Below, in pieces: positions 12,427 to 30,400 of a stretch of DNA of 32,000 nt. The notes below the pieces were generated by a model that saw only the letters and a list, made by a program, of their open reading frames with translations, made no database searches and had not been told where the DNA came from. A program made the position numbers and the translations under genes. How positions within the stretch are numbered: position 1 is the first letter of the stretch; each line of letters starts with the position of its first letter. Source of the stretch: Ignavibacteriales bacterium (GTDB lineage: Bacteria > Bacteroidota > Ignavibacteria > Ignavibacteriales > Ignavibacteriaceae); assembly GCA_016700155.1 (NCBI GenBank), contig CP065001.1, positions 409,788-441,787 of the forward strand. Reading direction: 5' to 3'.

Positions 12427-13449
12427 TCAGCGCACCTTAATTTTTTTCTCTAATGGAATTGCATTTCCCGTCCGAACAAAATCCAAATCATCTATAATTA
12501 TTTTTTTAAAAGTTAACCAATGATAAAACCTGTACGTCTTATCCAAGAAAATCATAACGTTGTTTTCAACTTTAATTAATTTTGAAGATTTTAATTCAAG
12601 GTATGGGAATTGTGATAATATTACTTTTGTAATTTCTAACTTTTCAGTTTTAATACGGGTACTTAGAATATTATAAATAATACTTTTCAAAAACGAATTT
12701 ACCGTATAAGTTTGATCTGAGTTAATACCGATGCCTGAATTATTGTTGAAACATTTTTTCATAAGCATTATTAATAATTCAATGGTACTTATAGAATATG
12801 TAATTTTATCCTTAATTTTGGCAACTATAAGAGATGTACGCTCTTCTGACAATGTAACTTCAACAAATGATCGTTTATTAATAATTGAGTATAAAAATTC
12901 AAATTCTTTTATTTCAGATTTTGTAAATGGTGCAGAATCATCTACTCTGAACTTTTCCAATTCCAATTCGAGTTTCAATTTTTCGTTTTGAATTGGCATC
13001 AACAATGCTTTAGATGCAGTTTCTAAATAACTCAACCATATCTCAGCGACAATTTGGGGAAAAACTACGTTATAATTTTTTTTGTTCCATTCAGGGAGTT
13101 GAAGACTTTGTAAATCCACTCTTAACCTACTTCTCAATGACTTTTCGGAAACATAAGGTAATATGCTAATATTTTTATCATTTAATTCACTTAACAATGC
13201 AACATCCAATTCTCTTTCAACAAACTTTGACTTAATCGAATCCTCAGTCAAATAGACTAATACAGAATCGCACGTAGGTATTCCATCTTCAAATATCGTT
13301 TTCAGGAAAGATTTTCCTGTCCGAATTTCAATTTCATCGCGCCATGGAGTAATCTGACAACGCATCAGATCATCAAACGCTTTCTTTACAAATTCTTTGT
13401 CATTTGAAGAGTATGAAAGGAATACGCGTGGTTTATTAATTCTTTCCAT
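12427..13449 (-). CDS. TIR-domain protein with a coiled coil and an unassigned C-terminal domain of about 190 aa
   Basis: 340 aa. The N-terminus 'PRVFLSYSSNDKEFVKKAFDDL...DSVLVYLTEDSIKSKFVERELDVAL' fits the bacterial TIR pattern (FLSYS start, S.W/F...E helix). It is followed by 'NEKLKLELELEKF'. The start codon overlaps the upstream gene by 14 nt. Confidence 0.75.
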   Translation of the reverse strand: MERINKPRVFLSYSSNDKEFVKKAFDDLMRCQITPWRDEIEIRTGKSFLKTIFEDGIPTCDSVLVYLTEDSIKSKFVERELDVALLSELNDKNISILPYVSEKSLRSRLRVDLQSLQLPEWNKKNYNVVFPQIVAEIWLSYLETASKALLMPIQNEKLKLELELEKFRVDDSAPFTKSEIKEFEFLYSIINKRSFVEVTLSEERTSLIVAKIKDKITYSISTIELLIMLMKKCFNNNSGIGINSDQTYTVNSFLKSIIYNILSTRIKTEKLEITKVILSQFPYLELKSSKLIKVENNVMIFLDKTYRFYHWLTFKKIIIDDLDFVRTGNAIPLEKKIKVR

Positions 13450-14281
13450 AATTTAATACCCGATCCCACTCAGTTGGTTTAAGTGACAAATTTAATTCCT
13501 GGATTAGAATAGAAGATAATCTTATTGAGATTTCAATGCTTTTTTCAATCTTCAATTTTGAAATGAAGAACTCCCGCTTCGTTTTAGATGGTAGGTCTTT
13601 TAAGCTTTTGACATGATAGATAATCAATTGTCTACTTACTTTTCCCACTGAACTATAGAGTTTGGACAATTCCTCAACATTCATTTTATACAAATCTATG
13701 TCATCTTCGGAATTTAATTGTAAGTAAGTAGGATAAATTGGATTATTATATTCATTAATGACTTCATCAAAATATCTTTTTGCATCTGTCCTAAATGAAT
13801 ATGAATAATTTGAACTTAATTTTCTCAATTCATCTAATGATCGCCTACTATCATTCTGAGCAGCAAGTTTGAGGAGTTCCAGATTTGTCAACTCAATTTT
13901 AGGAGTCAATATTGAGTCAATCATCTCTGTAATTCTTTTGTCTCCATATTGCTGAACTTTATATCTTGCCACCTCTTCAATTAATTCTCGAATGTTTTTT
14001 GAGTCAAACTCTTTTTCAATTTGTTGTACAACATTTCTTCTTACAACATCTACATGATAATTCATTGAATCTCTAATATTATCTTCGAATTTTTTAGTTT
14101 TTAATCTAACATCATCCATTGTTTCATTGATATTCGAATAAGTAAAATATCCGCCTATTAAAAAAACTAATGTCACAACAGCAACGACCCCTCCTACCAT
14201 CATTAAGAAACTACTGTGCGCTCGATAAATTGCTTCAACTTCATCAAATGATTTTCTTGATTTATTTTTACTTCGAAACAT
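13436..14281 (-). CDS. single-pass membrane protein of unknown function (N-terminal TM helix, long helical remainder)
   Basis: 281 aa. The TM segment is 'FLMMVGGVVAVVTLVFLIGGYF' after a basic N-terminus. I recognise no domain. It is co-oriented and overlapping with the TIR gene. Confidence 0.6.
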   Translation of the reverse strand: MFRSKNKSRKSFDEVEAIYRAHSSFLMMVGGVVAVVTLVFLIGGYFTYSNINETMDDVRLKTKKFEDNIRDSMNYHVDVVRRNVVQQIEKEFDSKNIRELIEEVARYKVQQYGDKRITEMIDSILTPKIELTNLELLKLAAQNDSRRSLDELRKLSSNYSYSFRTDAKRYFDEVINEYNNPIYPTYLQLNSEDDIDLYKMNVEELSKLYSSVGKVSRQLIIYHVKSLKDLPSKTKREFFISKLKIEKSIEISIRLSSILIQELNLSLKPTEWDRVLNYGKN

Positions 14282-14467: not shown

Positions 14468-14662
14468 AGAGCCCGCTAATAGTTATTGATACAAACTTAG
14501 GAAAGATATTTATGAAATGTAACTACGATTAAAATAATTTTGATCTTCCCTCTACACTCACAACCTCCTTCAGCCCGATTACGTCCTCACCGCATCCAAA
14601 ACAAGCTCCATCCAAACCCCGCAATAAAAACTACTATCCATTCAACAATACTATAAAATCCT

Positions 14663-14774
14663 AACCTTAGTAACGCTCTAAAATTACAAACAATAAAAAC
14701 CTTATTACCTTATCAAAAAAAACAATAAGCTAATAAGGTAAAAAAATTTACTCACTTAATTAGTTACTAAGGTT
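14663..14774. repeat. nested inverted repeat (long imperfect palindrome)
   Basis: Outer arms AACCTTAGTAAC 14663-14674 and GTTACTAAGGTT 14763-14774 are a perfect 12 bp match. Inner arms 14699-14713 and 14725-14739 match at 14 of 15 positions. Confidence 0.6.
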
Positions 14775-14792
14775 AAAACAAAAAACCGTAGC

Positions 14793-14872
14793 GGCGCAAA
14801 CCCTTGCGCCCCACCCATGCCTCACAAACCACAAATCCCGTTTCTTGCCTGTCACGGCCCAAGCCGTGACAG
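14793..14872. repeat. two REP-like GC hairpins
   Basis: GGCGCAA-ACCC-TTGCGCC at 14793-14810. CTGTCACGGC-CCAA-GCCGTGACAG at 14849-14872. Confidence 0.6.
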
Positions 14873-14993
14873 TCCCTAACACACTACGCCTCTGCCTTAA
14901 AAAAAACACCCACCCCCAATTAACCTCGCAAATTTCCCTCCCCACCCCTCATTTTACGCAAAAAACAAACAAACCCCCACAAAACACCCACAA

Positions 14994-15253
14994 AACTTCT
15001 CAACCTATTAACCAAACTTCTCAACTTATTATCCAACATTCTCAACTTATTATCCAACATTCTCAAATTATTAATCAAACTTCTCAAATTATGACTTAAT
15101 ATGCTCAACTTATGACTCAACATTCTCAACTTATTAACTAACATTCTCGACTTATTAATCAAACTTCTCAACTTATTATTCAACATTCTCGACTTATTAA
15201 CTAACATTCTCAACTTACTATTGCAACTTCTCAAACTATTAATTAACATTGCC
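14994..15253. repeat. tandem array of 12 full 21-bp units plus one partial (consensus about AACATTCTCAACTTATTAACT)
   Basis: Units start at 14994, 15015, 15036, 15057, 15078, 15099, 15120, 15141, 15162, 15183, 15204 and 15225, head to tail with no spacers. The array ends 45 nt before the HTH ATG. Confidence 0.9.
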
Positions 15254-15298
15254 AAAACATTTAGTCAACAATCCAAAAACAACCGGCAGGAGATTTAT

Positions 15299-15703
15299 AT
15301 GCTTACATACAACCTTAACAAACTGTTCGCACAGCGTGCAATCAAAAACAAAATTGCTTTCCTTACAAAGAATGGCTTCGACAAACAAACCGCCGCCCGC
15401 ATAATCAGGAATAAATTTTCAGCCCTCAAACTCACACAAATAGAAAAACTCTGCCTCGCGCTCCACTGCACTCCCAACGACATAATCCAATACACCCCCG
15501 ATCCCCGACGACCAATCCCCAACCACCAATCCCCAACGACCAATCCCCAACCACCAATCCCCAACCACCCCCTTACAAAACTAATCCACCCCGGCATCCC
15601 CGAACAACTCGCAAACATAATAGACGACATCCCCATAGATAAACTCAACGACTTCACACAACAAATAAAAACACTAAAGACACAACTACTCAACAACACA
15701 TAA
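15299..15703 (+). CDS. small XRE/Cro-like helix-turn-helix protein with a proline-rich repeat linker
   Basis: 134 aa from ATG 15299, with AGGAG 6-7 nt upstream. 'LNKLFAQRAIKNKIAFLTKNGFDKQTAARIIRNKFSALKLTQIEKLCLALHCTPNDIIQY' matches the small HTH family common in Bacteroidota-like genomes. I reject the upstream TTG at 15221 because it lies inside the repeat array. Confidence 0.7.
   Translation: MLTYNLNKLFAQRAIKNKIAFLTKNGFDKQTAARIIRNKFSALKLTQIEKLCLALHCTPNDIIQYTPDPRRPIPNHQSPTTNPQPPIPNHPLTKLIHPGIPEQLANIIDDIPIDKLNDFTQQIKTLKTQLLNNT
15509..15569. repeat. 14-bp tandem repeat inside the HTH gene (C[G/C]ACCAATCCCCAA, 4 copies plus a partial)
   Basis: Copies lie at 15509-15522, 15523-15536, 15537-15550 and 15551-15564, with a partial at 15565-15569. 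The period is not a multiple of 3. Confidence 0.85.
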
Positions 15704-18417: not shown

Positions 18418-18792
18418 TTATTTGTCGCTTAAATGTTCCTTATCAACTGATTGCAAAAAACGATTTAGCTTTTTACCTAACGTTTCAAGTTTAGAGTGAA
18501 GTTCATCGTACAATACATTATCTGTAAGAGACATGGTTTCGAACAAAGTCTCGAGATGATCAATCGTTTCATCATTAGAAGCTAAAGCCATTGTTATAAA
18601 CCGTATATAATCACTTTTATAATTTCTTCTTCCGTATCCTTCTACAATATTTGACTTCACAGATTTACAGGATCTTCTGATTTGACTTCCTTCTTCATAC
18701 ATTTCAATTTTAGGTAATGCTAAAGTCATTTTATGAATCTCTATAACCAATTCTCTTGCAAGCTGCCATATTTCTAAATTCTTGTAACTCAT
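18418..18792 (-). CDS. four-helix-bundle protein (23S rRNA intervening-sequence / Avd-like family)
   Basis: '[21 protein letters not shown]', '[20 protein letters not shown]' and '[16 protein letters not shown]' are characteristic of this family. Confidence 0.85.
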
Positions 18793-18865
18793 TTTCAATC
18801 ATAAAGAATTGTTAAAATTTATTTCGATTCTCTTGTAGCTAGTATCCAGCAACCTGCATCCAGAC

Positions 18866-20258: not shown

Positions 20259-23200
20259 ATGGTTAAAAGTATCTTCAGACATTTTGGATTCGTTCTGATC
20301 GTTATGTTGTTTGCGTATAATTTTTCTTATTCGCAGAAACCTGTTCAGAACAGGTCATTAATAATTAACCCTGACGTACAGGAAAATAGTATTGTCCGGA
20401 ATAACATCAGATATGATGTGAATTCAGGAATTCCTGTAGCTTTATACAAACCGGATTATGCGGTTACACCTGCTTTACCCAGGCAAATGGCTGAGCAATA
20501 TCTTTTTGAAAACGCTCAAATATTAAAAATTAAAAGTGATCTTAGCGACCTTCGGTATGTAACTACAACGGAAACCAGGGCAGGGTATCACATTCACTTT
20601 GCTCAATATATTGGAGATTATCCTGTTTACAATTCTACAATAAACGTTACGATTAATAGTAACAACCAAGTCATTTTCGTAATGAATGGTTACAAAGTTT
20701 CGTATGATACTAAAGAATCACCTGACCTTTCAACTTTAAATATCTCAGCACAGGATGCTCTGGCATCAGCCAAACAATATCTAGGAGTATCCAGCTCAAT
20801 AGAGCTTGAAAAATCACAAACGGTAGTCTATTTCAACAAAGGTCAGTTTACACTTGCGCAACTTGTAAATATAGTACCGAAAGAAGGTGTATACGGTGAC
20901 TGGGAAGTTATGGTAAATGCTCAATCGGGCGAAATTTTTAGAGTTGTCGATAAATCCTGCTATCATAAAGATGGTCCCGATAATCCAAATCTAGTAAACG
21001 GGACCGGATACGTATTTGATCCGGATCCAATCACTCATGCAAGAACATCCTATGGAACAGCAGGTTTTGTTGACAATAATGACCTCGATTCGGATTCGCT
21101 TACTGCCCACCGTGAGTTCAGAGTTTTAAATGATATTACATTTGAGGGCGGAGTATATTCTTTAAAAGGTCCATATGCGGAGATAGTGGATTTTGAATCT
21201 CCATTTACCGGACTCCACACAAGTGCAACAAGTGAATTCCATTATACAAGGAGCAGCGATAATTTTGAAGCTGTAAATGTTTACTTTCTTATTGATGCTT
21301 CAATGAGATGGATTAATGATTCATTAGGCATTACTTTACACCCATTCCAATATACAGGTGGTGTACGTGTTGATCCTCATGGATTAAGCGGTGATGATAA
21401 CTCTCACTATATACCTTCAACCGGACAACTGGCATTCGGGGATGGCGGCGTTGATGATGCTGAAGATGTTGGTGTTGTGTTACACGAATTAGGTCACGGT
21501 ATTCATGACTGGTTAACCGCCGGCTCACTTTCACAGGTTCAGGGATTAAGCGAAGGATGTGGAGATTACTGGACCACATCATATATCAGAGGCAAAGGAA
21601 TACTAACTCCATCGCACCCAGCCTACTTCTGGGTATTTGTTTGGGATGGACATAATCCATTCTGGGCCGGACGTATTGTTAATTACACTGCTCACTATCC
21701 TCAGGGTTTAACCGGTACCATTCATACTGATGGTCAGATGTGGGCTTCATCATTAATGTCGATCTGGGATCTTATAGGTAAAGAAGCTACGGATACGGAT
21801 TTTCTTGAAGCACTTGCAATGACAAACAGCAGTTCAAACCAGCAGGATGCAGCAAATGCATTTATTGCCGCCGACCAGACGGTTTACAGCGGAAGCCACC
21901 TTGCTCAAATCATTCCCGTATTTGCAGACCGGGGATATATTGAGGGCCCTATCACTCCTGATTTTACGGCAAACATAACTTCAGGAAATGCACCGCTGAC
22001 AGTTCAGTTTACAGATTTATCAATCGGACAGCCTAACCCGATTACCTCCTGGCAGTGGGATTTTAATAATGACGGAGTTGTTGATGCAACTGTTGAAGAC
22101 CCGCAATGGACTTACACTAACTTCGGAGTTTTTACTGTTAAGCTTACTGTTTCAGACGGCACAAATTTCGCGACAAAAACAAAAGTTGATTACATAAATG
22201 TCACAGATCCTAACCAGGTTACTGATACACTTTTTTCGGACAAGTTTGAAAGCGGAACAGGCGCATGGACTATCACTAACAATGGTGGAGCCTGCGTTTG
22301 GGAAATCTTTACCCCGCCTTACCCGAATACGTATACGTTACCCGCAGCATCATCAGGAGGAGTATTCTCTGCCGAATCTGATGATTGCGGCAGTAATACA
22401 ACAATGAATACAACGTCAATGATCACGCAAACATTTAATTGCAGTAACTACCCGTTAGTTGTTATTCATTTTGATAACGACTGGAGAATTCTGGATGCAC
22501 AGGACGAAGCTCATCTTGAAATCAGCACAGATGGCGGAACCACCTGGACAGGTGTTTGGGACCAGGTTGGTGTTGATGTTAGAAATACACATGAATCAAT
22601 CAATATCAGTCAGCTTGCCGCGGGTCAATCTAATGTTAAAATCAGGCTAAGATCAGTTCAACCCGGATGGGACTGGTGGTGGACTGTTGACAACTTTGCA
22701 GTTTTAGGTACATATGTTACACCTGTTGAATTAACATCATTCTCAGCTTCAGCTAATGATGATGTTGTGATGTTAAGCTGGTCAACTGCTACTGAAACCA
22801 ACAACAATGGTTTCGAAGTTGAAAGAAAATCAATTGATAATGAATTCCAGAAAGTCGGATTTGTTGAAGGTTACGGTACAACAACACAGGCGAAGCTTTA
22901 TTCATTTGTCGATTCAAAAGTACCGGCAGGAAGATATTCTTACAGGTTGAAACAAATCGACTTTGACGGAACATATGAGTATTCACCGGAAGTTGAAGTG
23001 AAAGTAAAAGTTCCTTATGTTTATTCACTTGAACAAAACTATCCGAATCCTTTTAATCCAACCACAAAAATAAGTTATTCAATTCCTGAAGAAGGATTTG
23101 TTACACTTGCAATTTATAACCTGCTTGGTGAAAAGGTTGCTACATTAATTAATGAAACGCAAAAAGCCGGCAGGTATGATGTGAAATTCCAACCGGAAAA

Positions 23201-23279
23201 TCTTTCAAGCGGAATGTACGTCTACAGGTTGGAAACAAAGAACTTTACCGCATCGAAAAAATTTGTGCTGATGAAGTAA
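20259..23279 (+). CDS. secreted zinc metalloprotease (PepSY/FTP-like propeptide, HExxH catalytic domain, PKD domain, T9SS C-terminal sorting domain)
   Basis: 1006 aa with a signal peptide. HELGH lies at 21483-21497, followed by 'GLSEGCGDYW'. A PKD-like block is 'APLTVQFTDLS...WQWDFNNDG...YTNFGVFTVKLTVSDG'. The C-terminus 'NYPNPFNPTTKISYSIP...GMYVYRLE' is a T9SS CTD. Confidence 0.85.
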   Translation: MVKSIFRHFGFVLIVMLFAYNFSYSQKPVQNRSLIINPDVQENSIVRNNIRYDVNSGIPVALYKPDYAVTPALPRQMAEQYLFENAQILKIKSDLSDLRYVTTTETRAGYHIHFAQYIGDYPVYNSTINVTINSNNQVIFVMNGYKVSYDTKESPDLSTLNISAQDALASAKQYLGVSSSIELEKSQTVVYFNKGQFTLAQLVNIVPKEGVYGDWEVMVNAQSGEIFRVVDKSCYHKDGPDNPNLVNGTGYVFDPDPITHARTSYGTAGFVDNNDLDSDSLTAHREFRVLNDITFEGGVYSLKGPYAEIVDFESPFTGLHTSATSEFHYTRSSDNFEAVNVYFLIDASMRWINDSLGITLHPFQYTGGVRVDPHGLSGDDNSHYIPSTGQLAFGDGGVDDAEDVGVVLHELGHGIHDWLTAGSLSQVQGLSEGCGDYWTTSYIRGKGILTPSHPAYFWVFVWDGHNPFWAGRIVNYTAHYPQGLTGTIHTDGQMWASSLMSIWDLIGKEATDTDFLEALAMTNSSSNQQDAANAFIAADQTVYSGSHLAQIIPVFADRGYIEGPITPDFTANITSGNAPLTVQFTDLSIGQPNPITSWQWDFNNDGVVDATVEDPQWTYTNFGVFTVKLTVSDGTNFATKTKVDYINVTDPNQVTDTLFSDKFESGTGAWTITNNGGACVWEIFTPPYPNTYTLPAASSGGVFSAESDDCGSNTTMNTTSMITQTFNCSNYPLVVIHFDNDWRILDAQDEAHLEISTDGGTTWTGVWDQVGVDVRNTHESINISQLAAGQSNVKIRLRSVQPGWDWWWTVDNFAVLGTYVTPVELTSFSASANDDVVMLSWSTATETNNNGFEVERKSIDNEFQKVGFVEGYGTTTQAKLYSFVDSKVPAGRYSYRLKQIDFDGTYEYSPEVEVKVKVPYVYSLEQNYPNPFNPTTKISYSIPEEGFVTLAIYNLLGEKVATLINETQKAGRYDVKFQPENLSSGMYVYRLETKNFTASKKFVLMK

Positions 23280-23321
23280 TGAAGTTGATGGTATTTTACC
23301 CAAAGTAAAATATGAATCTAA

Positions 23322-23348
23322 AGGCGATCAGGAATGGTCGCCTTTTTT
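23322..23348 (+). terminator. intrinsic terminator of the protease gene
   Basis: AGGCGA 23322-23327 pairs with TCGCCT 23338-23343 and runs into a T6 tract ending at 23348. Confidence 0.7.
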
Positions 23349-23483
23349 ATTGGGCTATTGTCAAATCAACTTGCTTCAGGCCGGGAGATATCACTAATCC
23401 CAAGTACTTCAAAAATTAAAACTTGTACCCCGCAGGTGGAATCGCTGATCTTATCTAGTTAAGGAGTTTTGAGTTTACAAAGA

Positions 23484-23672
23484 GTACATTCTGATTCAAG
23501 TTTAGTACATTCCCGTTCACACTGAGCACATTTCCATTCTCGTTTAATACATTTCTATACACATCGAGTACATTCTCATTCACGTTAAGAACATTCCCGT
23601 TCAGATTAAATACATTCCTGTTCACGTTGAGTACATATCTGTTCACATTCAGTACGTATCCATTCACATATC
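23484..23672. repeat. tandem array of 9 full 21-bp units (consensus about GTACATTCCCGTTCACGTTGA) with degenerate flanking units
   Basis: Units start at 23484, 23505, 23526, 23547, 23568, 23589, 23610, 23631 and 23652, head to tail. The array shares the ACATTCYC core and the 21-bp period with the array at 14994-15253. It ends about 40 nt before ATG 23713. Confidence 0.9.
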
Positions 23673-23712
23673 ATACATACATAAAGAAATTTTTTTTGTT
23701 TTTGTTGAATAA

Positions 23713-23940
23713 ATGGGGGAAAGGGTTGGTGTTAAGTTAAAGTTTAATTTCAAGTCTGTGTTTGCGGCACGCGGGATACAGAGTCCGACCGGGTTTTTGA
23801 GGAAGGCGGGGTTTTCGCCTTTTACTGCTTATTACATATCCGCGGGTAAGGTGGAGGAGGGGAAGAGGTTTATTGAGAAGAAGAGGAAAGAAACAACCTC
23901 ACCCCTTCCCCCTCTCCTTAGTAAGGAGAGGGGTGTGTGA
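23713..23940 (+). pseudogene. truncated paralogue of the 15299..15703 HTH gene
   Basis: 'FKSVFAARGIQSPTGFLRKAGFSPFTAYYISAGK' aligns with 'LNKLFAQRAIKNKIAFLTKNGFDKQTAARIIRNK'. The recognition-helix part (IEKLCLAL..PNDI) is missing. The 3' end is built from a REP-like palindrome, CCCCTCTCCTTA-G-TAAGGAGAGGGG (23909-23933). Confidence 0.45.
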
Positions 23941-24314
23941 TTTTTAAATTTTGGTTGAGTTTTGTTTTTGGTTGGTTTAAGTTGCTATTGAATTTATGTC
24001 GCCCCAGTTACCAAATCAAAAAAAATCCCGGGGCAGGCTTTGCGGCAGTTGTACAGGTTAGGCTTGTATGTGGAAAGCGGATCGGGAGAGAAAATAGTTA
24101 TGAGTTAAGAGTGATGAGTTATGAGTTTGTAGAGGAGAATATTTTTCTCAACTATAAACCAGGACTGAATTATAAAATTATCGCTAAATAATTTTATAAA
24201 AATAGTTTAAGCCTTTGTTGATTTAAGTAAGCGGTTTATAGATCAGAAAATAATTCGTGAATATCAACCGGATTGAGAACCGCCAATTCGGGGATATGTA
24301 TTAGTCCTATTTCT

Positions 24315-24974
24315 ATGAAAAGATATGTAATAAATAAAGAAGATAAGAGTTTCATTAATAGAGAAACCCATTTTGTTGAATTAGGATTATTTGACTTTTG
24401 GTCTCTTTCTATGAAAGCAATTAAAAATAATTTCCCACCATTAATTAAAATTTCCAATATTGATGAAGCATTTAATGTTATAAAAATTTTTATAAAGGAA
24501 TGTGGAAACACTCTTATATTAGACTTACCAGATGGTTATAGTACAAATTATATCACGGGTATTGAAATTGAACAAGATACAATGCGAATTATATGGTATT
24601 CTGCAAATAAAATTTTTGAAGACTCTGACGTTATAAATGATAGCTTTAATGAATTTAGAAAGAGTTATATAGGGGAAAATTTAGAACAGCAATATGGTTT
24701 TACTTTTGATTATTTAATCTTGACACCTGCTTATATTTTGATTTATGCTGAGGAACGAGCTTTCCCAGAAACGATAGATACAAATGAAGAACATTTAGAA
24801 ATATTAACTCACCCTGACTTGAAAATATATGAACACACTTGGGGAAGTTATAAAGTTGAACCCATACTTCAGTATAGAACTCGATATTATTGTAATAAAG
24901 GATTGGTTACAGTATTATATCCCAAAGCTAATCGTGGTAGTTTTAGAGCCGATGAATTTTTTGAGAGCCTTTAG
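24315..24974 (+). CDS. hypothetical protein, no recognisable domain
   Basis: The ORF is 24273..24974. I prefer ATG 24315 (MKRYVINK...). It is AT-rich and its stop lies 2 nt before the next gene's ATG. Confidence 0.55.
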   Translation: MKRYVINKEDKSFINRETHFVELGLFDFWSLSMKAIKNNFPPLIKISNIDEAFNVIKIFIKECGNTLILDLPDGYSTNYITGIEIEQDTMRIIWYSANKIFEDSDVINDSFNEFRKSYIGENLEQQYGFTFDYLILTPAYILIYAEERAFPETIDTNEEHLEILTHPDLKIYEHTWGSYKVEPILQYRTRYYCNKGLVTVLYPKANRGSFRADEFFESL

Positions 24975-24976
24975 AA

Positions 24977-26122
24977 ATGACGATTTCAGACGCATATAAA
25001 GTTCTGGAAATTGATAATCCAGATTATTCTCTATCACAAGTAAAAAATTCATTTAGAAATTTAGCAAAAAAATATCACCCAGATATTTCTGGCAAATCTG
25101 AATATTCAAGATTTATAGATATTTATAATGCTTACAGTTATTTGCTAATAAATCTTCCCAAACAGTATTCTGTTAAAAAAGATGAAACTGCTAAGCAAAA
25201 TATCTTTAACGATTCAACAATTTTTTACGATTTTATTTCTTTTATTGATCGCTTGCATCTTGATTTTATCGTTCTACCACGACGACAATTTGGGAATGTT
25301 CCATCAAATTTTTCAGACATATTTTTTAGTCAAATTGACAACATATTTTCTCAAGATACTTTAGAGTTAATCTCAGAATCAATTTTAACTGGTCATAAGA
25401 AAAGACTTATTGATTTGCTTTCTACTATCTTTGCTGGAACATCACTATTAAAAAGAAATAAATTTTTTAAAAGAATTAAAACCATCGCAAGACAAGAAAG
25501 ATATTTGTCTAATTTAATAAACGCTACAATAGTAGGTATTCCGACCCAAATTTTTACAACTAGCTCAACAAGTATTCCCGATCAGAATACAAATGATTAT
25601 AAAAGTGGTGCAATTAATGTATTATCATTACGCAAAGAATTTTTAGATAGGTTTTTAGATTATTCTCGAAGTAAACCTAACCCAATCTTCTATGAATCAT
25701 CAGTTCCTGAAAAATCTTTTAGAGAAAGTATGCGCGAAGTAAAAAGCGAAGAATCTGCTAAAATTATATTTAAAGAAATTAAGAATAGAATTAGAAGTAG
25801 CTCTGGCAAAGTACAGCTAAATGAAACTCAAATAAAAAATGTAGTTGATTACATTTCCCAGCTAGCCGATTTAGGTGAAAATTTAAAAGGACAATTTGTT
25901 TTTACGTACAGAATTAATGATGATAAAGGACTTGTTAGTGCATTAATTGAACTCTTATTAAAACAAGGTCTTTCATATGAAAGACTATCACTACTCATTA
26001 GGCTATATCAATACTACAAACTTTATCATAAAGATTACAAATTCATTTTTAAAAATCATTCACAAATAAGAGAAGGTCAAATTCTATTGGAATTAAATCA
26101 ACTTATCTCTGATATTGTATGA
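24977..26122 (+). CDS. J-domain (DnaJ-like, HPD motif intact) protein with an unassigned C-terminal region of about 310 aa
   Basis: 'DAYKVLEIDNPDYSLSQVKNSFRNLAKKYHPDISGKSEYSRFIDIYNAYSYL' shows the J-domain helix II, HPD and helix III pattern. I recognise no G/F or zinc-finger region. Confidence 0.75.
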   Translation: MTISDAYKVLEIDNPDYSLSQVKNSFRNLAKKYHPDISGKSEYSRFIDIYNAYSYLLINLPKQYSVKKDETAKQNIFNDSTIFYDFISFIDRLHLDFIVLPRRQFGNVPSNFSDIFFSQIDNIFSQDTLELISESILTGHKKRLIDLLSTIFAGTSLLKRNKFFKRIKTIARQERYLSNLINATIVGIPTQIFTTSSTSIPDQNTNDYKSGAINVLSLRKEFLDRFLDYSRSKPNPIFYESSVPEKSFRESMREVKSEESAKIIFKEIKNRIRSSSGKVQLNETQIKNVVDYISQLADLGENLKGQFVFTYRINDDKGLVSALIELLLKQGLSYERLSLLIRLYQYYKLYHKDYKFIFKNHSQIREGQILLELNQLISDIV

Positions 26123-26336
26123 GGAAGAAATATAACATCTTTAATAAGTAAAGAATCCCGCCAAAGGCGGGTAAACAATACTGTAAAAAGAAAAAAATTA
26201 TCCGGTTCGATACTTTTGAATAGAGTCCTTTAGAAAAATAAACACATTTAATCTTTTAAATAATTATAAACACGGCGTTGTGGTTTAACAACTTGTCCCT
26301 ACTATTCGGGATAACACGACGTTATATGGCTAAAGT

Positions 26337-26753
26337 ATGAAAGAGAAAGATGACATTCAAAAACCTATTTTAGAAGGTAAGTTAAAAGAAGCGCGAATAA
26401 TAACGAATGAGTTTGGTGAACCTAGTATTCCTCCTGAGTACACTTATGAATTAACTGAAGTAGGTAAGGCTGAGATAAAAAAAGCATCAGATATTTTGAA
26501 AAAATATGAGCTATTTATCGAACCAAAACAGTACTTGGAAATAAAAGAAAAGCATAATAAAATAAAATCAAAGTTCTCGCAGACCAAAGAGAGAATCAAT
26601 ATCTCATTTTTTCTTGGCATAACATGGTACTTAGTTGTTTTCTATTCTTCTTTTATAACTGAAAATATATATGTGTCTTTTATTTTTACGACCCTTATAT
26701 TTTTAATTATAATTTACTTATTCGTTTATAAAAATGATTTTGACACTTTTTAG
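26337..26753 (+). CDS. small membrane protein (soluble N-terminus, two C-terminal TM helices)
   Basis: 138 aa. 'ISFFLGITWYLVVFYSSFI' and 'VSFIFTTLIFLIIIYLFVY' are hydrophobic helices. Confidence 0.5.
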   Translation: MKEKDDIQKPILEGKLKEARIITNEFGEPSIPPEYTYELTEVGKAEIKKASDILKKYELFIEPKQYLEIKEKHNKIKSKFSQTKERINISFFLGITWYLVVFYSSFITENIYVSFIFTTLIFLIIIYLFVYKNDFDTF

Positions 26754-26769
26754 TTTTTATGAATAAACA

Positions 26770-27384
26770 ATGCCAAGTAATTTCAATAAAAATAAATTCG
26801 ATTTAATATTTCGTACAAAGAAATTTGAAGTTGAAAATCGACAAAGAAAAGATATGAAGGAATTAGTTGAAAAGTTAGCAAGAGAAAATATCAGAGGTTC
26901 TTTTGCAAATAATGCAACCAATGATTTAACACAAAATCATTTTAAGGAAATATTAAATATCTGGATAGAATCGTTAATTGAATCGTTTGGTAAAAACAGA
27001 ATTTTGGACGAAGATATAAAAGAGGTAAAAGGATTATCTGAAACTTTTAATGAACATTACATTGAAAGAGAGAAAAATGGTTTTCAGACTGCTCTTATAT
27101 CGAAGGGCAATAATTTGGGAAGCTCAATAGTAACAGATAATGTAAAGACATTAGAACATATGCTACATAGGGTTAGGACTAATGCAAATGATTTATTAAC
27201 CTTAGCTATTGATAAGCAAAATGAAAATCTCTCCTATGTCGAGAACATCAATATGATTAGCAAAAGCAACCCGAACAATGAGAATACTAATACTTCAAAC
27301 TTTTGGGAGAAATACGGAAGACAGATTTTTATTGGTGTTATTATTACTGTTATTGGAGGAATAATCTTGGGTCTAATTCTTTAA
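26770..27384 (+). CDS. tail-anchored membrane protein of unknown function
   Basis: 204 aa with a C-terminal TM helix 'QIFIGVIITVIGGIILGLIL'. It starts 16 nt after the preceding ORF. Confidence 0.5.
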   Translation: MPSNFNKNKFDLIFRTKKFEVENRQRKDMKELVEKLARENIRGSFANNATNDLTQNHFKEILNIWIESLIESFGKNRILDEDIKEVKGLSETFNEHYIEREKNGFQTALISKGNNLGSSIVTDNVKTLEHMLHRVRTNANDLLTLAIDKQNENLSYVENINMISKSNPNNENTNTSNFWEKYGRQIFIGVIITVIGGIILGLIL

Positions 27385-27440
27385 TTGTTAAGATGCCATA
27401 TAACCTCTTTAATCCGTCAAAGCCGGACAAGTAAATAAAA

Positions 27441-27460
27441 AGTCCCGCCTAAGCGGGACT
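27441..27460. terminator. bidirectional terminator hairpin between convergent genes
   Basis: AGTCCCGC-CTAA-GCGGGACT. T-rich tracts follow it on both strands (CTTTATTTC on plus, TTTTATTTAC on minus). Confidence 0.6.
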
Positions 27461-27494
27461 CTTTATTTCATAACATAAATCTATTAATTAACAA

Positions 27495-30400
27495 CTACCT
27501 TTTATCCGGGTATGGTGGTGGTTCCGGGAGTTTGACCGGATTATTCTTCAGCTCATTCAGCACTTCTTCAATTGCTTTGTTAAGCTGCTGGTCTGTTCCT
27601 TCAAACTCCATTGCGGGATCGTTGTCAACGTAAATGTCAGGATCAACTCCATGACCTTCCATCACCCATTCATTTCCTTCAAGATCGTAGCGTGAAAATT
27701 CAGGTCTGTTTAGGAAACCGCCGTCAACTATTGGCAGTGTTCCTCTTATACCTACAACTCCGCCCCACGAACGTTTACCAATAAGTTTACCGAGTTTATA
27801 ATATTTAAACCTGTAAGGGAAAATATCACCGTCACTTGCAGAGAATTCATCAAGCAATGTTACTTTCGGACCAACGTGTGTTCCGCCGGGATTAAATCCT
27901 GTCGCGGTGTTGCGGGCTATATCAATCATTGCCGGAAGTCTTCTTAATCTTTCAACGATCATTGGTGAAACGTTTCCGCCGCCGTTACCGCGTACATCAA
28001 TGATGAGCGCTTGCTTGCGAAGTTGCGGATAATAATATTTTACAAATTCATTAAGTCCGCCAGGACCCATATCAGGAATGTGAATGTAACCGACTTTTCC
28101 GTCAGTAGCTTTGTTTACTTTATCAATATTATCCTGAACCCAGTTTAAGTAGTAAAGATCATGTTCATCAGACATAGGCACAACAACGGATTCGCGGCTT
28201 CCTTCTTTTTTAGCAGATGAATTAACCGTTAGTGTTACCTGTTTACCGGCAGTGTTTACAAGTTCGGAATAAATGTTCGCGATTTTGTTTGCCGGTTTTC
28301 CATTGATCTCTATTATGTAATCACCTTCGTTAACATTAACACCGATTTCAGTAAGAGGTGAACGGGTGTTGTTACTCCAGTTATTTCCTTTAAGAATTTT
28401 TTTGATTTTAAAATATCCTGATGAAGGAACTTTTTCTATTTGTGCGCCAAGTAAACCAAGCTGAATTCTTTCGGGTCTTGGATAATCACCGCCGCCGACA
28501 TAAGCGTGACCGACATTTAATTCGCCTATCATCTCGCCGATAATATAAGTCAGATCAACACGGTGATTTACATATTTAACAAGCGGCTCATAATTTTTTC
28601 GTATTGCAGCCCAATCAACTCCATGCATATTTGGCGCATAGAAGAAGTCGCGCATCTGCCTCCAGCATTCGTTGAATATCTGGTTCCATTCAGCGTATCT
28701 GTCAAGATTCATCTTCATATCTGAAAGATTTAGTTTTTCTTTCATTTCTATTTTAGATGAAGGAAGATCAATTATAGCATAAGAACCCTGCTGTGATACA
28801 AGCATTTTCTTTTTATCCGCAGAAACTTCATAACCGCCGATTTCACCAAGTTCGGTTTCTTTTTGTTTGTTCATATCGAACATAAAAAGTTTTGGTCGTG
28901 AATCACTGCTTCCGTTTCTCTGGTAATAAAGTTTTTCACCAACTGATAAAAGATTAAAATAGTTTGATGCTTCAACGGGCAGTTCAAGTATTCTTGATTG
29001 AATGCCGTCTTCATCAACCTTTACTGATACTTTGCTGTCCTTATCTTTTTTATCCTTGTCTTCTTCTTTCTTTGAATCATCTTTAATTACAACTTCATCG
29101 CTCTTTGGTTCGAATGGTGATTTTGTATCCTTCGCAAGAGTGACCAAATAAATTTTTGCCATATCCTGGTAGATGTGATTCCACTCAGTCTGGCTGTACC
29201 TTGGTGAGAAACTTCTGTTAGAAACGAAGTAAAGATATTTTCCGTCAGAACTGAATGTTGAACCGTAAGTTGAATACCAGCCATCGGTGATATCGATAGT
29301 CTTTTTACTTTCAAGTGAATAGAGTTTTACTTTTGTCATCACTTCAACTTCAGGATTTGAGTAGGTTATCCACTTACTATCGGGTGACCATTCGTAAGCA
29401 TTAAATTCAAACGCATCTGATTTGGCGACGAGTGTTACATCCTTTGAATCAATATCAACAAACTGAAGCCGTTGCTCTCTGTCAGCCCACAATAATTTTT
29501 TACTGTCGGGCGACCACAAAGGCTGATACTTATAATTCTTATCACCGTCAGTAAGTTTTATCGGTTCTGATTTTCCATCCTGTGCCATTATATAAATTTC
29601 GTCTTCGCCGCTTTCATCTGAAATGTATGAAATCCATTTGCCGTCAGGCGACCATTTGGAATTTCTTTCATGTATTCCCGATGTGTTGGTAAGGTTTCTT
29701 GTGTTGCCATATTTAACCGGGACAGTGAAAATTTCACCTCGCGCACCGAACAATGCCCTGTTTCCATCGGGTGAAATTTCATAGTTGCTTACGTTCCTGC
29801 TTACATCGATTAGTCCGCCTCTTCCTGAATCAAAATCTTCATTAATAAAAATCTGGACTTTATCAGTTTTGCCGGAAGTTAAATCATGCTTATAAATATA
29901 TCCGCCGTTCTCAAAGACTATTGCGTTATCACCAACCGAAGGATATTTAATATCATATTCACTGAATGTTGTAAGCTTTTTTGTTTCTTTAGTTGAAAGA
30001 TCATAAACAAAAAGATTCATTCTTTTATCGCGGTCAGAGATAAAATATATTTTAGTACCTGCCCACATAGGAATAATATCCTGTGCAGGATTGTTCGTAA
30101 TGTTCTCGATCTTTTTTGTTTTGAAATCATAAATCCATACATCATCTGCCTGACCGCCGCGGTAACGTTTCCATGTTCTGAATTCTCTGAACACTCTGTT
30201 ATACGCAAGCTTTGAAGCATCCGGTGAATATGAACAGAAACCGCCACGAGGCAAAGGCAGTTGTTCCATCAACCCGCCTTTTGAATTAACAGTATATAAC
30301 TGACCTTTGAAATCATTGAATTCAATCCATCGTGATCGAAGTACAACAGTTGAATTATCTCTCCATCCCATTACAATGTTGTTCGGTCCCATTCTGTCTG

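Follow-up and report, generated by a model that had tools for sequence, protein, structure and literature searches.

The AT-rich cluster of four plus-strand open reading frames (ORFs) analyzed here, which lies in a 32,000-nucleotide stretch (the window) of a 4.6-Mb contig from the metagenome-assembled genome of an Ignavibacteriales bacterium, is best read as two adjacent integron gene cassettes, i.e., one that carries ORF1 and the gene for a J-domain protein (J; positions 24304-26136) and one that carries ORF3 and ORF4 (26321-27404). As their attC sites have decayed to R-box remnants, the two cassettes are regarded as fossils or as an arrangement resembling a cluster of attC sites lacking integron-integrases (CALIN). 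We assign a probability of roughly 0.6 to this reading, in which ORF1 and J form an accessory module. An initial annotation of this DNA had interpreted all four genes as one conflict system that hijacks host DnaK; overall this interpretation is partly supported, and the integron-cassette nature of the genes was missed in it. The main value of the present analysis is a corrected reading, in which an apparent four-gene "system" is a cassette neighborhood and not an operon, and which illustrates a general trap, namely the inference of function from gene adjacency in AT-rich islets.

Comparison with related loci (designated L001, L009, etc.) indicated which of the four genes travel together. Among 5.8 billion proteins, the J-protein has three close relatives (72-90% identity), and all three have a 227-aa ORF1 homologue directly upstream, which overlaps the J start by 23 nt; the genes downstream of J differ in each of these loci. 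An exhaustive HMMER search of 1.84 billion representatives with the C-terminal 320 aa of the J-protein retrieved four further proteins, i.e., P0016, P0017, P0018 and one fragment; the first three each carry an N-terminal HPD J-domain, and P0017 again sits downstream of an ORF1 homologue. P0018 is followed by an SDH-type protease. Overall, in each of the four close lineages and also in the distant locus L021, ORF1 is located directly 5' of the J gene, so that the coupling of the two genes, which the initial annotation had proposed, is confirmed: they are a conserved, translationally coupled pair. The travelling unit consists of ORF1 and J only (1.83 kb, 24308-26136) and was seen in three or more different chromosomal contexts. 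In the window, a 1-nt indel shifts the ORF1 stop to 2 nt ahead of the J start codon (24974 and 24977, respectively, as initially described) and leaves the C-terminus of ORF1 shorter than in all J-linked relatives.

ORF3 and ORF4 homologues were absent from every other locus bearing ORF1 or J. ORF3 is a singleton with no homologue, and the relatives of ORF4 (44-85% identity) sit in other arrays with no ORF1 or J nearby, where a different 133-aa membrane protein and a PEGA lipoprotein are encoded upstream of ORF4 and where ParE/Phd, MazEF and Fic genes are also found. Because of this distribution, the four genes are two independent units and not one conserved system. A single DnaK-hijacking conflict system, in which J would direct DnaK to two membrane-protein effectors, could account for the compact, same-strand, AT-rich arrangement of the genes, and a distant J relative (P0016, in L020) is indeed followed after 12 nt by an unrelated protein with two transmembrane (TM) segments; however, such a system is hard to reconcile with the lack of ORF3 and ORF4 at all other ORF1 or J loci, with the arrays that hold ORF4 relatives and neither ORF1 nor J, and with the R-box cores and attC-like spacer that part the two units in the window. 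This model is largely refuted already by the lack of synteny, which the initial annotation itself had named as grounds for its failure, and we consider it very improbable; the proposed "membrane partners" belong to a neighboring cassette. The two-TM protein after P0016 (L020 1539-2363) matches the uncharacterised phage family phrog_17460 (E 1e-6).

In the relatives, both units are integron gene cassettes, as is evident from their integrases, from alternating attC half-sites with stem covariation, from homology that ends at R-box cores and from inverted repeats that are cassette-specific. At the nucleotide level, the window is homologous to the J-bearing loci over exactly 24308-26136 and to the ORF4 loci over 26765-27404; both stretches end at AAC, and the unit borders coincide with R-box cores. 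In the J-bearing relatives, GTTATATTTCT immediately ahead of the ORF1 start codon and AGAAATATAAC after the J stop form a perfect inverted repeat, while GTTATATGGC and GCCATATAAC delimit the ORF4 unit in the window as well as in L032; the extended inverted repeats thus differ by cassette (GTTATATTTCT/AGAAATATAAC vs. GTTATATGGC/GCCATATAAC). Judged by their sequence, these border motifs appear to be the core sequences (GTTRRRY and RYYYAAC) found in the attC sites of integrons, and the sequence 3' of AAC in the relatives (...CAGCCAATCAACCCGACCGCC...) is one that we take to resemble the classical aadA 59-base element.

The tyrosine recombinases encoded in L001 and L032 scored 442 and 421 bits, respectively, against the integron-integrase model TIGR02249 (cut-off 265 bits); the integrase gene has the same orientation as the cassettes in L001 (300-1325) and is divergent in L032 (3515-4504). 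The attC sites were detected with nhmmer, using hidden Markov models of the 5' and 3' half-sites, and the matches (E 1e-5 to 1e-14) strictly alternate, 190-245 nt apart, between ORFs. Eight attC sites were found in L001, 4-5 in L009 and 3-4 in L032, and further sites in L005, L017/18 (which holds a solo ORF1 cassette), L028 and L035. The two halves of the sites pair in single-sequence folds, and RNAalifold recovers a long-range stem in which 10 of 15 pairs are compensated; when the R box is added, 13 of 22 pairs show compensatory double changes. In this stem, 90.8% of cells are paired, as compared to 31-45% with a slid partner, and none of 500 shuffles reached the observed covariation. Arrays with sites of 190-245 nt extend over 3653-17775 in L001, 2061-6415 in L009 and 5391-8860 in L032; covariation support for the L''/L' stem of these long sites is strong, and some of them share a conserved internal hairpin (GCAAACTGCACTT...AAGTGCAGTTTGC). 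One "cassette" of L001 (12456-15908) comprises three genes, which encode a tetratricopeptide repeat (TPR) protein and two proteins with type IX secretion system tails. Chromosomal integrons of this Ignavibacteria type, with long, covariation-supported attC sites, are a source of uncharacterised cassettes.

Within the window, remnants of the same sites were found at the borders of both units (Table 1). The R' core that opens the ORF3-ORF4 unit (26321-26331) includes GTTATATGGC, whose exact reverse complement, GCCATATAAC, occurs at 27395-27404. Between the two units, the initial annotation had noted a spacer of 214 bp after J; a spacer is present there, yet it is a degenerate attC-like region and not a plain one. 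Aligned to the attC family, the J-to-ORF3 spacer retains R'', R' and part of L' over a length of 206 nt, and a G+C-rich hairpin (CCCGCCAAAGGCGGG, 26157-26171) is located 3' of the J stop within the L'' half, where unrelated sequence has taken over. As the ORF1 start codon follows the cassette border by only 4-7 nt, the ORF1-J cassette is predicted to be promoterless, in which case its expression must originate outside the cassette. External expression is normal for integron cassettes, unlike typical toxin-antitoxin cassettes.

Table 1. Features of the four-gene region and its borders (positions in the window)
Feature	Position	Strand	Description
Degenerate R' remnant GTCCTATTTCT	24304-24314	+	Left border of the ORF1-J cassette; homology begins at 24308
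ORF1	24315-24974	+	219 aa (probable start at ATG 24315), predicted cytoplasmic alpha/beta protein; in relatives a cassette alone or with the J gene
J-protein	24977-26122	+	Class-C J-protein, 381 aa; J-domain 24989-25144 (aa 5-56), HPD 25076-25084
Recombination breakpoint, approx. 25080	25035-25125	+	Identity shift at the HPD codons (25076-25084)
R'' core AGAAATATAAC	26126-26136	+	Right border of the ORF1-J cassette; no J-bearing locus is homologous beyond this AAC
Degenerate attC-like spacer	26137-26320	+	Length fits the attC family; partial 3' L' half; 5' L'' half replaced
R' core GTTATATGGCT	26321-26331	+	Left border of the ORF3-ORF4 cassette
ORF3	26337-26753	+	138 aa, soluble N-terminal part, two predicted C-terminal TM helices; singleton
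ORF4	26770-27384	+	204-aa helical protein with predicted C-terminal TM anchor; conserved family in cassettes
R'' core GCCATATAAC	27395-27404	+	Right border of the ORF3-ORF4 cassette; L032 homology ends; degenerate L''-like stretch follows
Bidirectional terminator-like hairpin	27441-27460	.	T-runs on both strands; common to the convergent tricorn-protease gene

The J-protein scores 34.3 bits against PF00226 (aa 5-56; gathering score 27.8), with the HPD motif at aa 34-36, and its distant relatives score 41-44 bits on the same model. H34, P35 and D36 as well as the basic helix II residues K23, R27, K31 and K32 are invariant in all seven family members. No Pfam match to a G/F region, a zinc finger, DnaJ_C or DnaJ_CXXCXGXG was found in the protein, in agreement with the initial description of a clean J-domain with an intact HPD motif followed by about 310 aa of unassignable sequence. 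The suggested check against housekeeping co-chaperones was also run, and the protein was rejected as a DnaJ (class A; TIGR02349, 28.8 bits vs. a cut-off of 377, with only aa 1-56 aligned), as a CbpA (class B; NF007618, 27.7 bits vs. 403, with the J-domain alone aligned) and as a DjlA (NF006948, 17.8 bits vs. 162). In DjlA proteins the J-domain is C-terminal and is preceded by an N-terminal TM segment and a TerB-like domain; the window protein carries its J-domain at the N-terminus and has no predicted TM segment. These results point to an orphan class-C J-protein of a very rare family. Among solved J-domain structures, that of CbpA is the closest (E 3.5e-4).

The J-domain is followed by two predicted all-alpha regions, split by a Ser/Asn-rich linker. 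Approximately 27 positions of this C-domain are invariant across the seven members, with no obvious catalytic motif. The C-domain matched nothing in Pfam, PADLOC, PHROGs or NCBIfam, profile matches to PDB sequences were at chance level, and no relatives were found in GTDB representative genomes, IMG/VR, GenBank phages or PLSDB plasmids. The J-domain portion alone matches phrog_14336 and phrog_15863. As phage J-domain families thus exist, and as the J-protein Rki of phage RB43 acts on DnaK and sigma-32 (PMC3486835), a phage-derived host-takeover module might be considered for the ORF1-J pair; like Rki, the window protein is an orphan J-domain protein on mobile DNA that would be expected to act via host DnaK. 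Nevertheless, its PHROG matches are limited to the J-domain, ORF1 (see below) and the C-domain have no relatives among the phage and plasmid sequences searched, no phage genes are located nearby, and Rki differs in its C-domain and partner gene and shows no homology beyond the J-domain. A phage origin is in practice refuted by the database searches and is the least credible of the alternatives that we weighed.

For ORF1, the initial annotation had placed the start at TTG 24273. All homologues begin with MKRY or MSRY at the position of ATG 24315, and DNA homology starts at 24308, which argues that ATG 24315 is the true start and that the protein has 219 aa. The family has 11 members (clusters) with 50-64% identity. 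Neither Pfam, PADLOC, PHROGs nor NCBIfam yielded a match, the ORF1 profile gave only chance-level matches to PDB sequences, and GTDB representative genomes, IMG/VR, GenBank phages and PLSDB plasmids contained no relatives. The AlphaFold2 model is a confident one (predicted local distance difference test score (pLDDT), 80.8; predicted template modeling score, 0.80); it has an alpha/beta N-terminal half and a C-terminal half rich in beta hairpins, and a Foldseek search of PDB and BFVD with this model found no fold match (best E 0.04, TM < 0.2). Invariant polar residues include E62, C63, N65, D73, H166, H174, R190 and C193, and a PP motif at residues 41-42 is also invariant. Two further features were not relied on. 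The first is an acidic C-terminal tail, which is carried by the J-linked ORF1 proteins and absent from the ORF1 of the window; it might be a signal like that of chaperone addiction, but a by-product of the 23-nt gene overlap explains it equally well. The second is a likeness between the PPxK of ORF1 and the LPPVK of IscU, which follows phylogeny and is a lead only. The approx. 220-aa tandem genes beside ORF1 in L009 and L013 were tested as ORF1 paralogues and found not to be paralogous; in both of these unrelated loci (L009 2365-3027 and L013 10785-11447) the gene encodes a 220-aa CxxC zinc-ribbon protein, which is located once upstream of ORF1 (with J) and once downstream (without J).

Purifying selection was apparent on ORF1, J and ORF4, with ratios of nonsynonymous to synonymous substitution rates (dN/dS) of about 0.07-0.25 for unsaturated pairs (0.1-0.3 for ORF1); for example, dN and dS were 0.053 and 0.227 for J between the window and L009, and 0.074 and 0.41 for ORF1 between L001 and L009. 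Divergence differed sharply along the unit, as dS between the window and L009 was approx. 1.6 in ORF1 but 0.23 in J. In sliding-window comparisons with L009 and L001, identity was 64-76% from the ORF1 start to approx. 25079 and 88-98% from there to the J stop, and L005 vs. L021 gave the mirror image at the same junction (81-88% before, 32-59% after). The ORF1-J unit therefore comprises two linkage blocks that recombine independently, i.e., ORF1 with helices I and II of the J-domain, and helix III with the C-domain. This mosaicism fits a C-domain that serves as a variable specificity module. The high identity of the C-domain segment, together with its dN/dS of 0.21-0.23, suggests that exchange was recent and that constraint persists, at least in the lineage.

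The same data bear on whether J is a dedicated co-chaperone and ORF1 its client (an enzyme or scaffold with conserved Cys and His residues) in a niche-adaptive role outside conflict, in which J would bring ORF1 to DnaK for maturation much as HscB brings IscU to HscA. The ORF1-J pair shares with HscB-IscU and CbpA-CbpM an N-terminal HPD J-domain, a non-canonical helical C-domain and a J gene that adjoins, and is probably co-translated with, one specific conserved partner. The invariant C63, H166, H174 and C193 and the PP motif of ORF1 would suit a client, and most integron cassettes are not defense genes (PMC10661359). On the other hand, no match to HscB, IscU or any other such family was obtained, similarity to these co-chaperones does not extend beyond the J-domain and scores are far under the family cut-offs, ORF1 has no relationship to IscU or CbpM and is located upstream of J, and the pair is mobile and extremely rare. 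In addition, ORF1 evidently does without J in other cassettes, C-domain alleles have been swapped with no matching change in ORF1, and the neighbors at related loci are mostly conflict-type genes. We therefore regard a dedicated co-chaperone and client as rather unlikely.

A number of observations weigh against reading the region as two cassettes with ORF1-J as an accessory module. No intact attC was found in the window (half-site nhmmer, E > 0.4), no integrase was found among the ORFs of at least 120 aa scanned within the 32 kb, and short motifs of the R-box type are not enriched window-wide (28 matches vs. 23 expected), so that the cassette status of the window units would follow from homology to cassettes elsewhere together with short R-box remnants. 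A scan for sigma-70-type promoters showed no enrichment, and no promoter was identified at the locus. As to the module itself, some ORF1 family members have no J gene, and ORF1 also circulates as a solo cassette (L017/18, L028). ORF1 is 75-78% identical between loci whose J C-domains share only 28-30%, and because ORF1 stays similar while the C-domain alleles diverge, the mosaicism argues against a finely co-adapted interface between the two. The model of the J-protein is poor (pLDDT 54.6 overall, acceptable to approx. residue 180) and leaves the fold of the C-domain unreadable; Foldseek matches of this low-confidence model to generic designed or TPR-like helical repeats were rejected as uninformative. 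Finally, the four proteins matched no PADLOC-DB 2.0 family at E values up to 1.

A silent, decaying relic with no current function in this genome would be supported by the degenerate attC sites, the lack of an integrase or Pc promoter in the window, the indel that shortens the ORF1 C-terminus relative to all J-linked relatives, and a truncated helix-turn-helix (HTH) gene with tandem repeats upstream of the cluster. All four frames are intact, however, and the constraint and high identity of the J C-domain segment are not those expected of a relic. We consider decay to be a possibility of some weight, though a minority one, and the ORF1-J cassette is probably functional as an uncharacterised module, most likely of the accessory, conditionally useful kind that integrons stockpile.

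HPD J-domains dock on Hsp70/DnaK and trigger ATP hydrolysis, and class-C J-proteins pick their client or location through their other domains. By analogy, the two translationally coupled genes of the promoterless cassette may encode a self-sufficient cytoplasmic protein (ORF1) and an add-on adaptor (J), whose J-domain would bind host DnaK and stimulate its ATPase. The swapped all-alpha C-domain would presumably select the client, which could be ORF1 itself or a foreign (e.g., phage) protein, and recruitment of DnaK to ORF1 or to the target bound by the C-domain could in turn control ORF1. Both the identity of the client and a defense function are speculative.

A role in conflict or defense is our leading guess, albeit a tentative one, because the neighbors are mostly conflict genes, because approximately one third of screened cassettes proved protective and because the C-domain is modular and swappable. 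In its specific form, this guess casts ORF1 as a phage-defense effector that would be gated by DnaK. Across the related loci, the neighbors include a restriction-modification pair, HNH, GmrSD, a HEPN protein, a caspase, ParE/Phd and MazEF; GmrSD, the HEPN protein, an HNH nuclease and a caspase-like protein are, among others, neighbors of ORF1 genes without J. The estimate of one third refers to cassettes of unknown function from mobile integrons, which gave phage resistance when screened (doi 10.1101/2024.07.02.601719). Like the bacteriophage resistance integron cassettes (BRiCs) described in that study, the ORF1-J cassette is a short, uncharacterised unit of one or two genes that accompanies other defense genes in integrons; unlike these, it is known here from sequence alone, and it has no homology to any BRiC or PADLOC model. 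DnaJ-domain fusions are present in some GTPase/HSP70 conflict systems (PMC7159879), and bNACHT25 requires host DnaJ (PMC12169576), while no description of a defense system built on a J-domain protein was found in the literature searched. The pair might be the first anti-phage (or addiction) module of this type, in which host DnaK, enlisted by a mobile adaptor, would retain or release an effector and the C-domain would sense phage proteins, with alleles shuffled at the HPD codons and spread by integrons; we consider this full scheme doubtful.

Alternatively, ORF1 and J could form a toxin-antitoxin-like addiction module that stabilizes the array, as a DnaK-based analogue of the SecB-dependent toxin-antitoxin-chaperone (TAC) systems. 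In such a module, one of the two proteins would be a toxin, and the other would recruit DnaK to neutralize it. Two genes with overlapping or abutting frames would be consistent with this, toxin-antitoxin cassettes are abundant in integrons (PMC10661359), ParE/Phd and MazEF pairs are neighbors within related arrays, and TAC provides a precedent for chaperone-dependent toxin-antitoxin systems (PMC5105189, PMC11618068). The likeness to TAC and CmdTAC is one of concept, i.e., a small mobile module gated by a chaperone; TAC encodes its own SecB-like chaperone plus a recognizable toxin and antitoxin, whereas the contribution of ORF1-J would be limited to a co-chaperone adaptor that acts with host DnaK, and neither a toxin fold nor an antitoxin fold was recognizable. 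No match to a type II toxin-antitoxin or TAC family was found, and strict co-occurrence is broken by ORF1 genes without J; the solo ORF1 cassettes imply that ORF1 is neither an obligate toxin nor an obligate antitoxin. Proteins of 219 and 381 aa are also large for a toxin-antitoxin pair. Toxin-antitoxin cassettes usually have an internal promoter, for which the distance between cassette border and ORF1 start codon leaves no space. An addiction module is accordingly an unlikely explanation. If DnaK-dependent defense or addiction were true, recruitment of host Hsp70 would join the ways in which mobile conflict modules are gated.

Overall, the ORF1-J pair would be nearest by mechanism to HscB-IscU, CbpA-CbpM and TAC/CmdTAC, and it appears to be a member of none of them. 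Its mobility mechanism, integron cassettes, is of a known kind, and the J-protein family is new: a rare, mobile class-C J-protein coupled to a partner with no detectable structural relative, whose putative client-selecting domain is exchanged at the HPD codons. The resemblance to integron cassettes includes ORFs in the window that appear promoterless, share one orientation, are AT-rich and are bounded by GTT.../...AAC R-box cores, as well as units in the relatives that lie between structured attC sites beside IntI and have restriction-modification, toxin-antitoxin and nuclease cassettes as neighbors. The differences are that the attC sites of the window are degenerate with no integrase found within 32 kb, that attC sites in this lineage have an unusual length (190-245 nt) and that the ORF1-J cassette consists of two fairly large genes.

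The second cassette of the window encodes two putative membrane proteins. A simple hydropathy scan predicted two C-terminal TM segments in ORF3 and one C-terminal TM anchor in ORF4, as had been proposed initially, and the 204-aa length first given for ORF4 also holds. Support for its start (ATG 26770) comes from homologues and from DNA homology, and the GenBank call QQS36703.1 (176 aa) seems to begin 28 codons late. The GenBank proteins concerned are QQS36700-QQS36703 (locus tags IPM56_01715-01730). The basis for regarding ORF3 as a real gene consists only of its length and TM pattern, and the small membrane proteins that precede ORF4 differ among its relatives. Neither protein had a match in Pfam, PADLOC, PHROGs or NCBIfam.

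The remainder of the window carries core metabolism genes (transaldolase, phosphoglucose isomerase, enolase, glutamine synthetase, an aminotransferase and proteases), and the four-gene cluster, which is flanked by two housekeeping-type protease genes, is therefore a small foreign islet inside a core region. The accessory nature, AT-richness and four plus-strand ORFs of this region had been recognized in the initial annotation; G+C content is 0.27-0.31 there, as compared to 0.37-0.41 in the flanks. The T-runs on both strands of the hairpin downstream of ORF4 likewise fit the bidirectional terminator proposed there. An Rfam search of 23000-27700 gave only chance matches below threshold.

Further features were observed elsewhere in the window. 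Arrays of a 21-bp tandem repeat (12 copies at 14997-15250 and 9 copies at 23482-23669) are located immediately 5' of a Cro/C1-type HTH_26 ORF and beside AT-rich islets in both cases; operator arrays or an insertion hotspot are candidate roles. The HTH_26 ORF at 15221-15703 is intact, and the one at 23713-23940, upstream of the four-gene cluster, has been truncated to a remnant (tblastn E 4e-5). Two features were noted at 14540-15000 and 15501-15569, namely a strongly C-rich stretch of non-coding DNA (GC skew -0.44 to -0.50) and a 14-bp tandem repeat within the HTH gene that gives rise to a proline-rich repeat in the protein. A gene for a TIR-domain protein (Pfam TIR_2, 62.6 bits; PADLOC PDC-S66, SAVED_TIR and ThsB-like matches) lies in a second AT-rich islet (12427-14281, minus strand, G+C 0.31) and overlaps that for a 281-aa uncharacterised protein; the two genes are probably a separate defense-type pair. 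At 18418-18798 on the minus strand, an ORF of the 23S rRNA intervening-sequence protein family (PF05635, 94.9 bits) is flanked by genes for an aminotransferase and an alcohol dehydrogenase.

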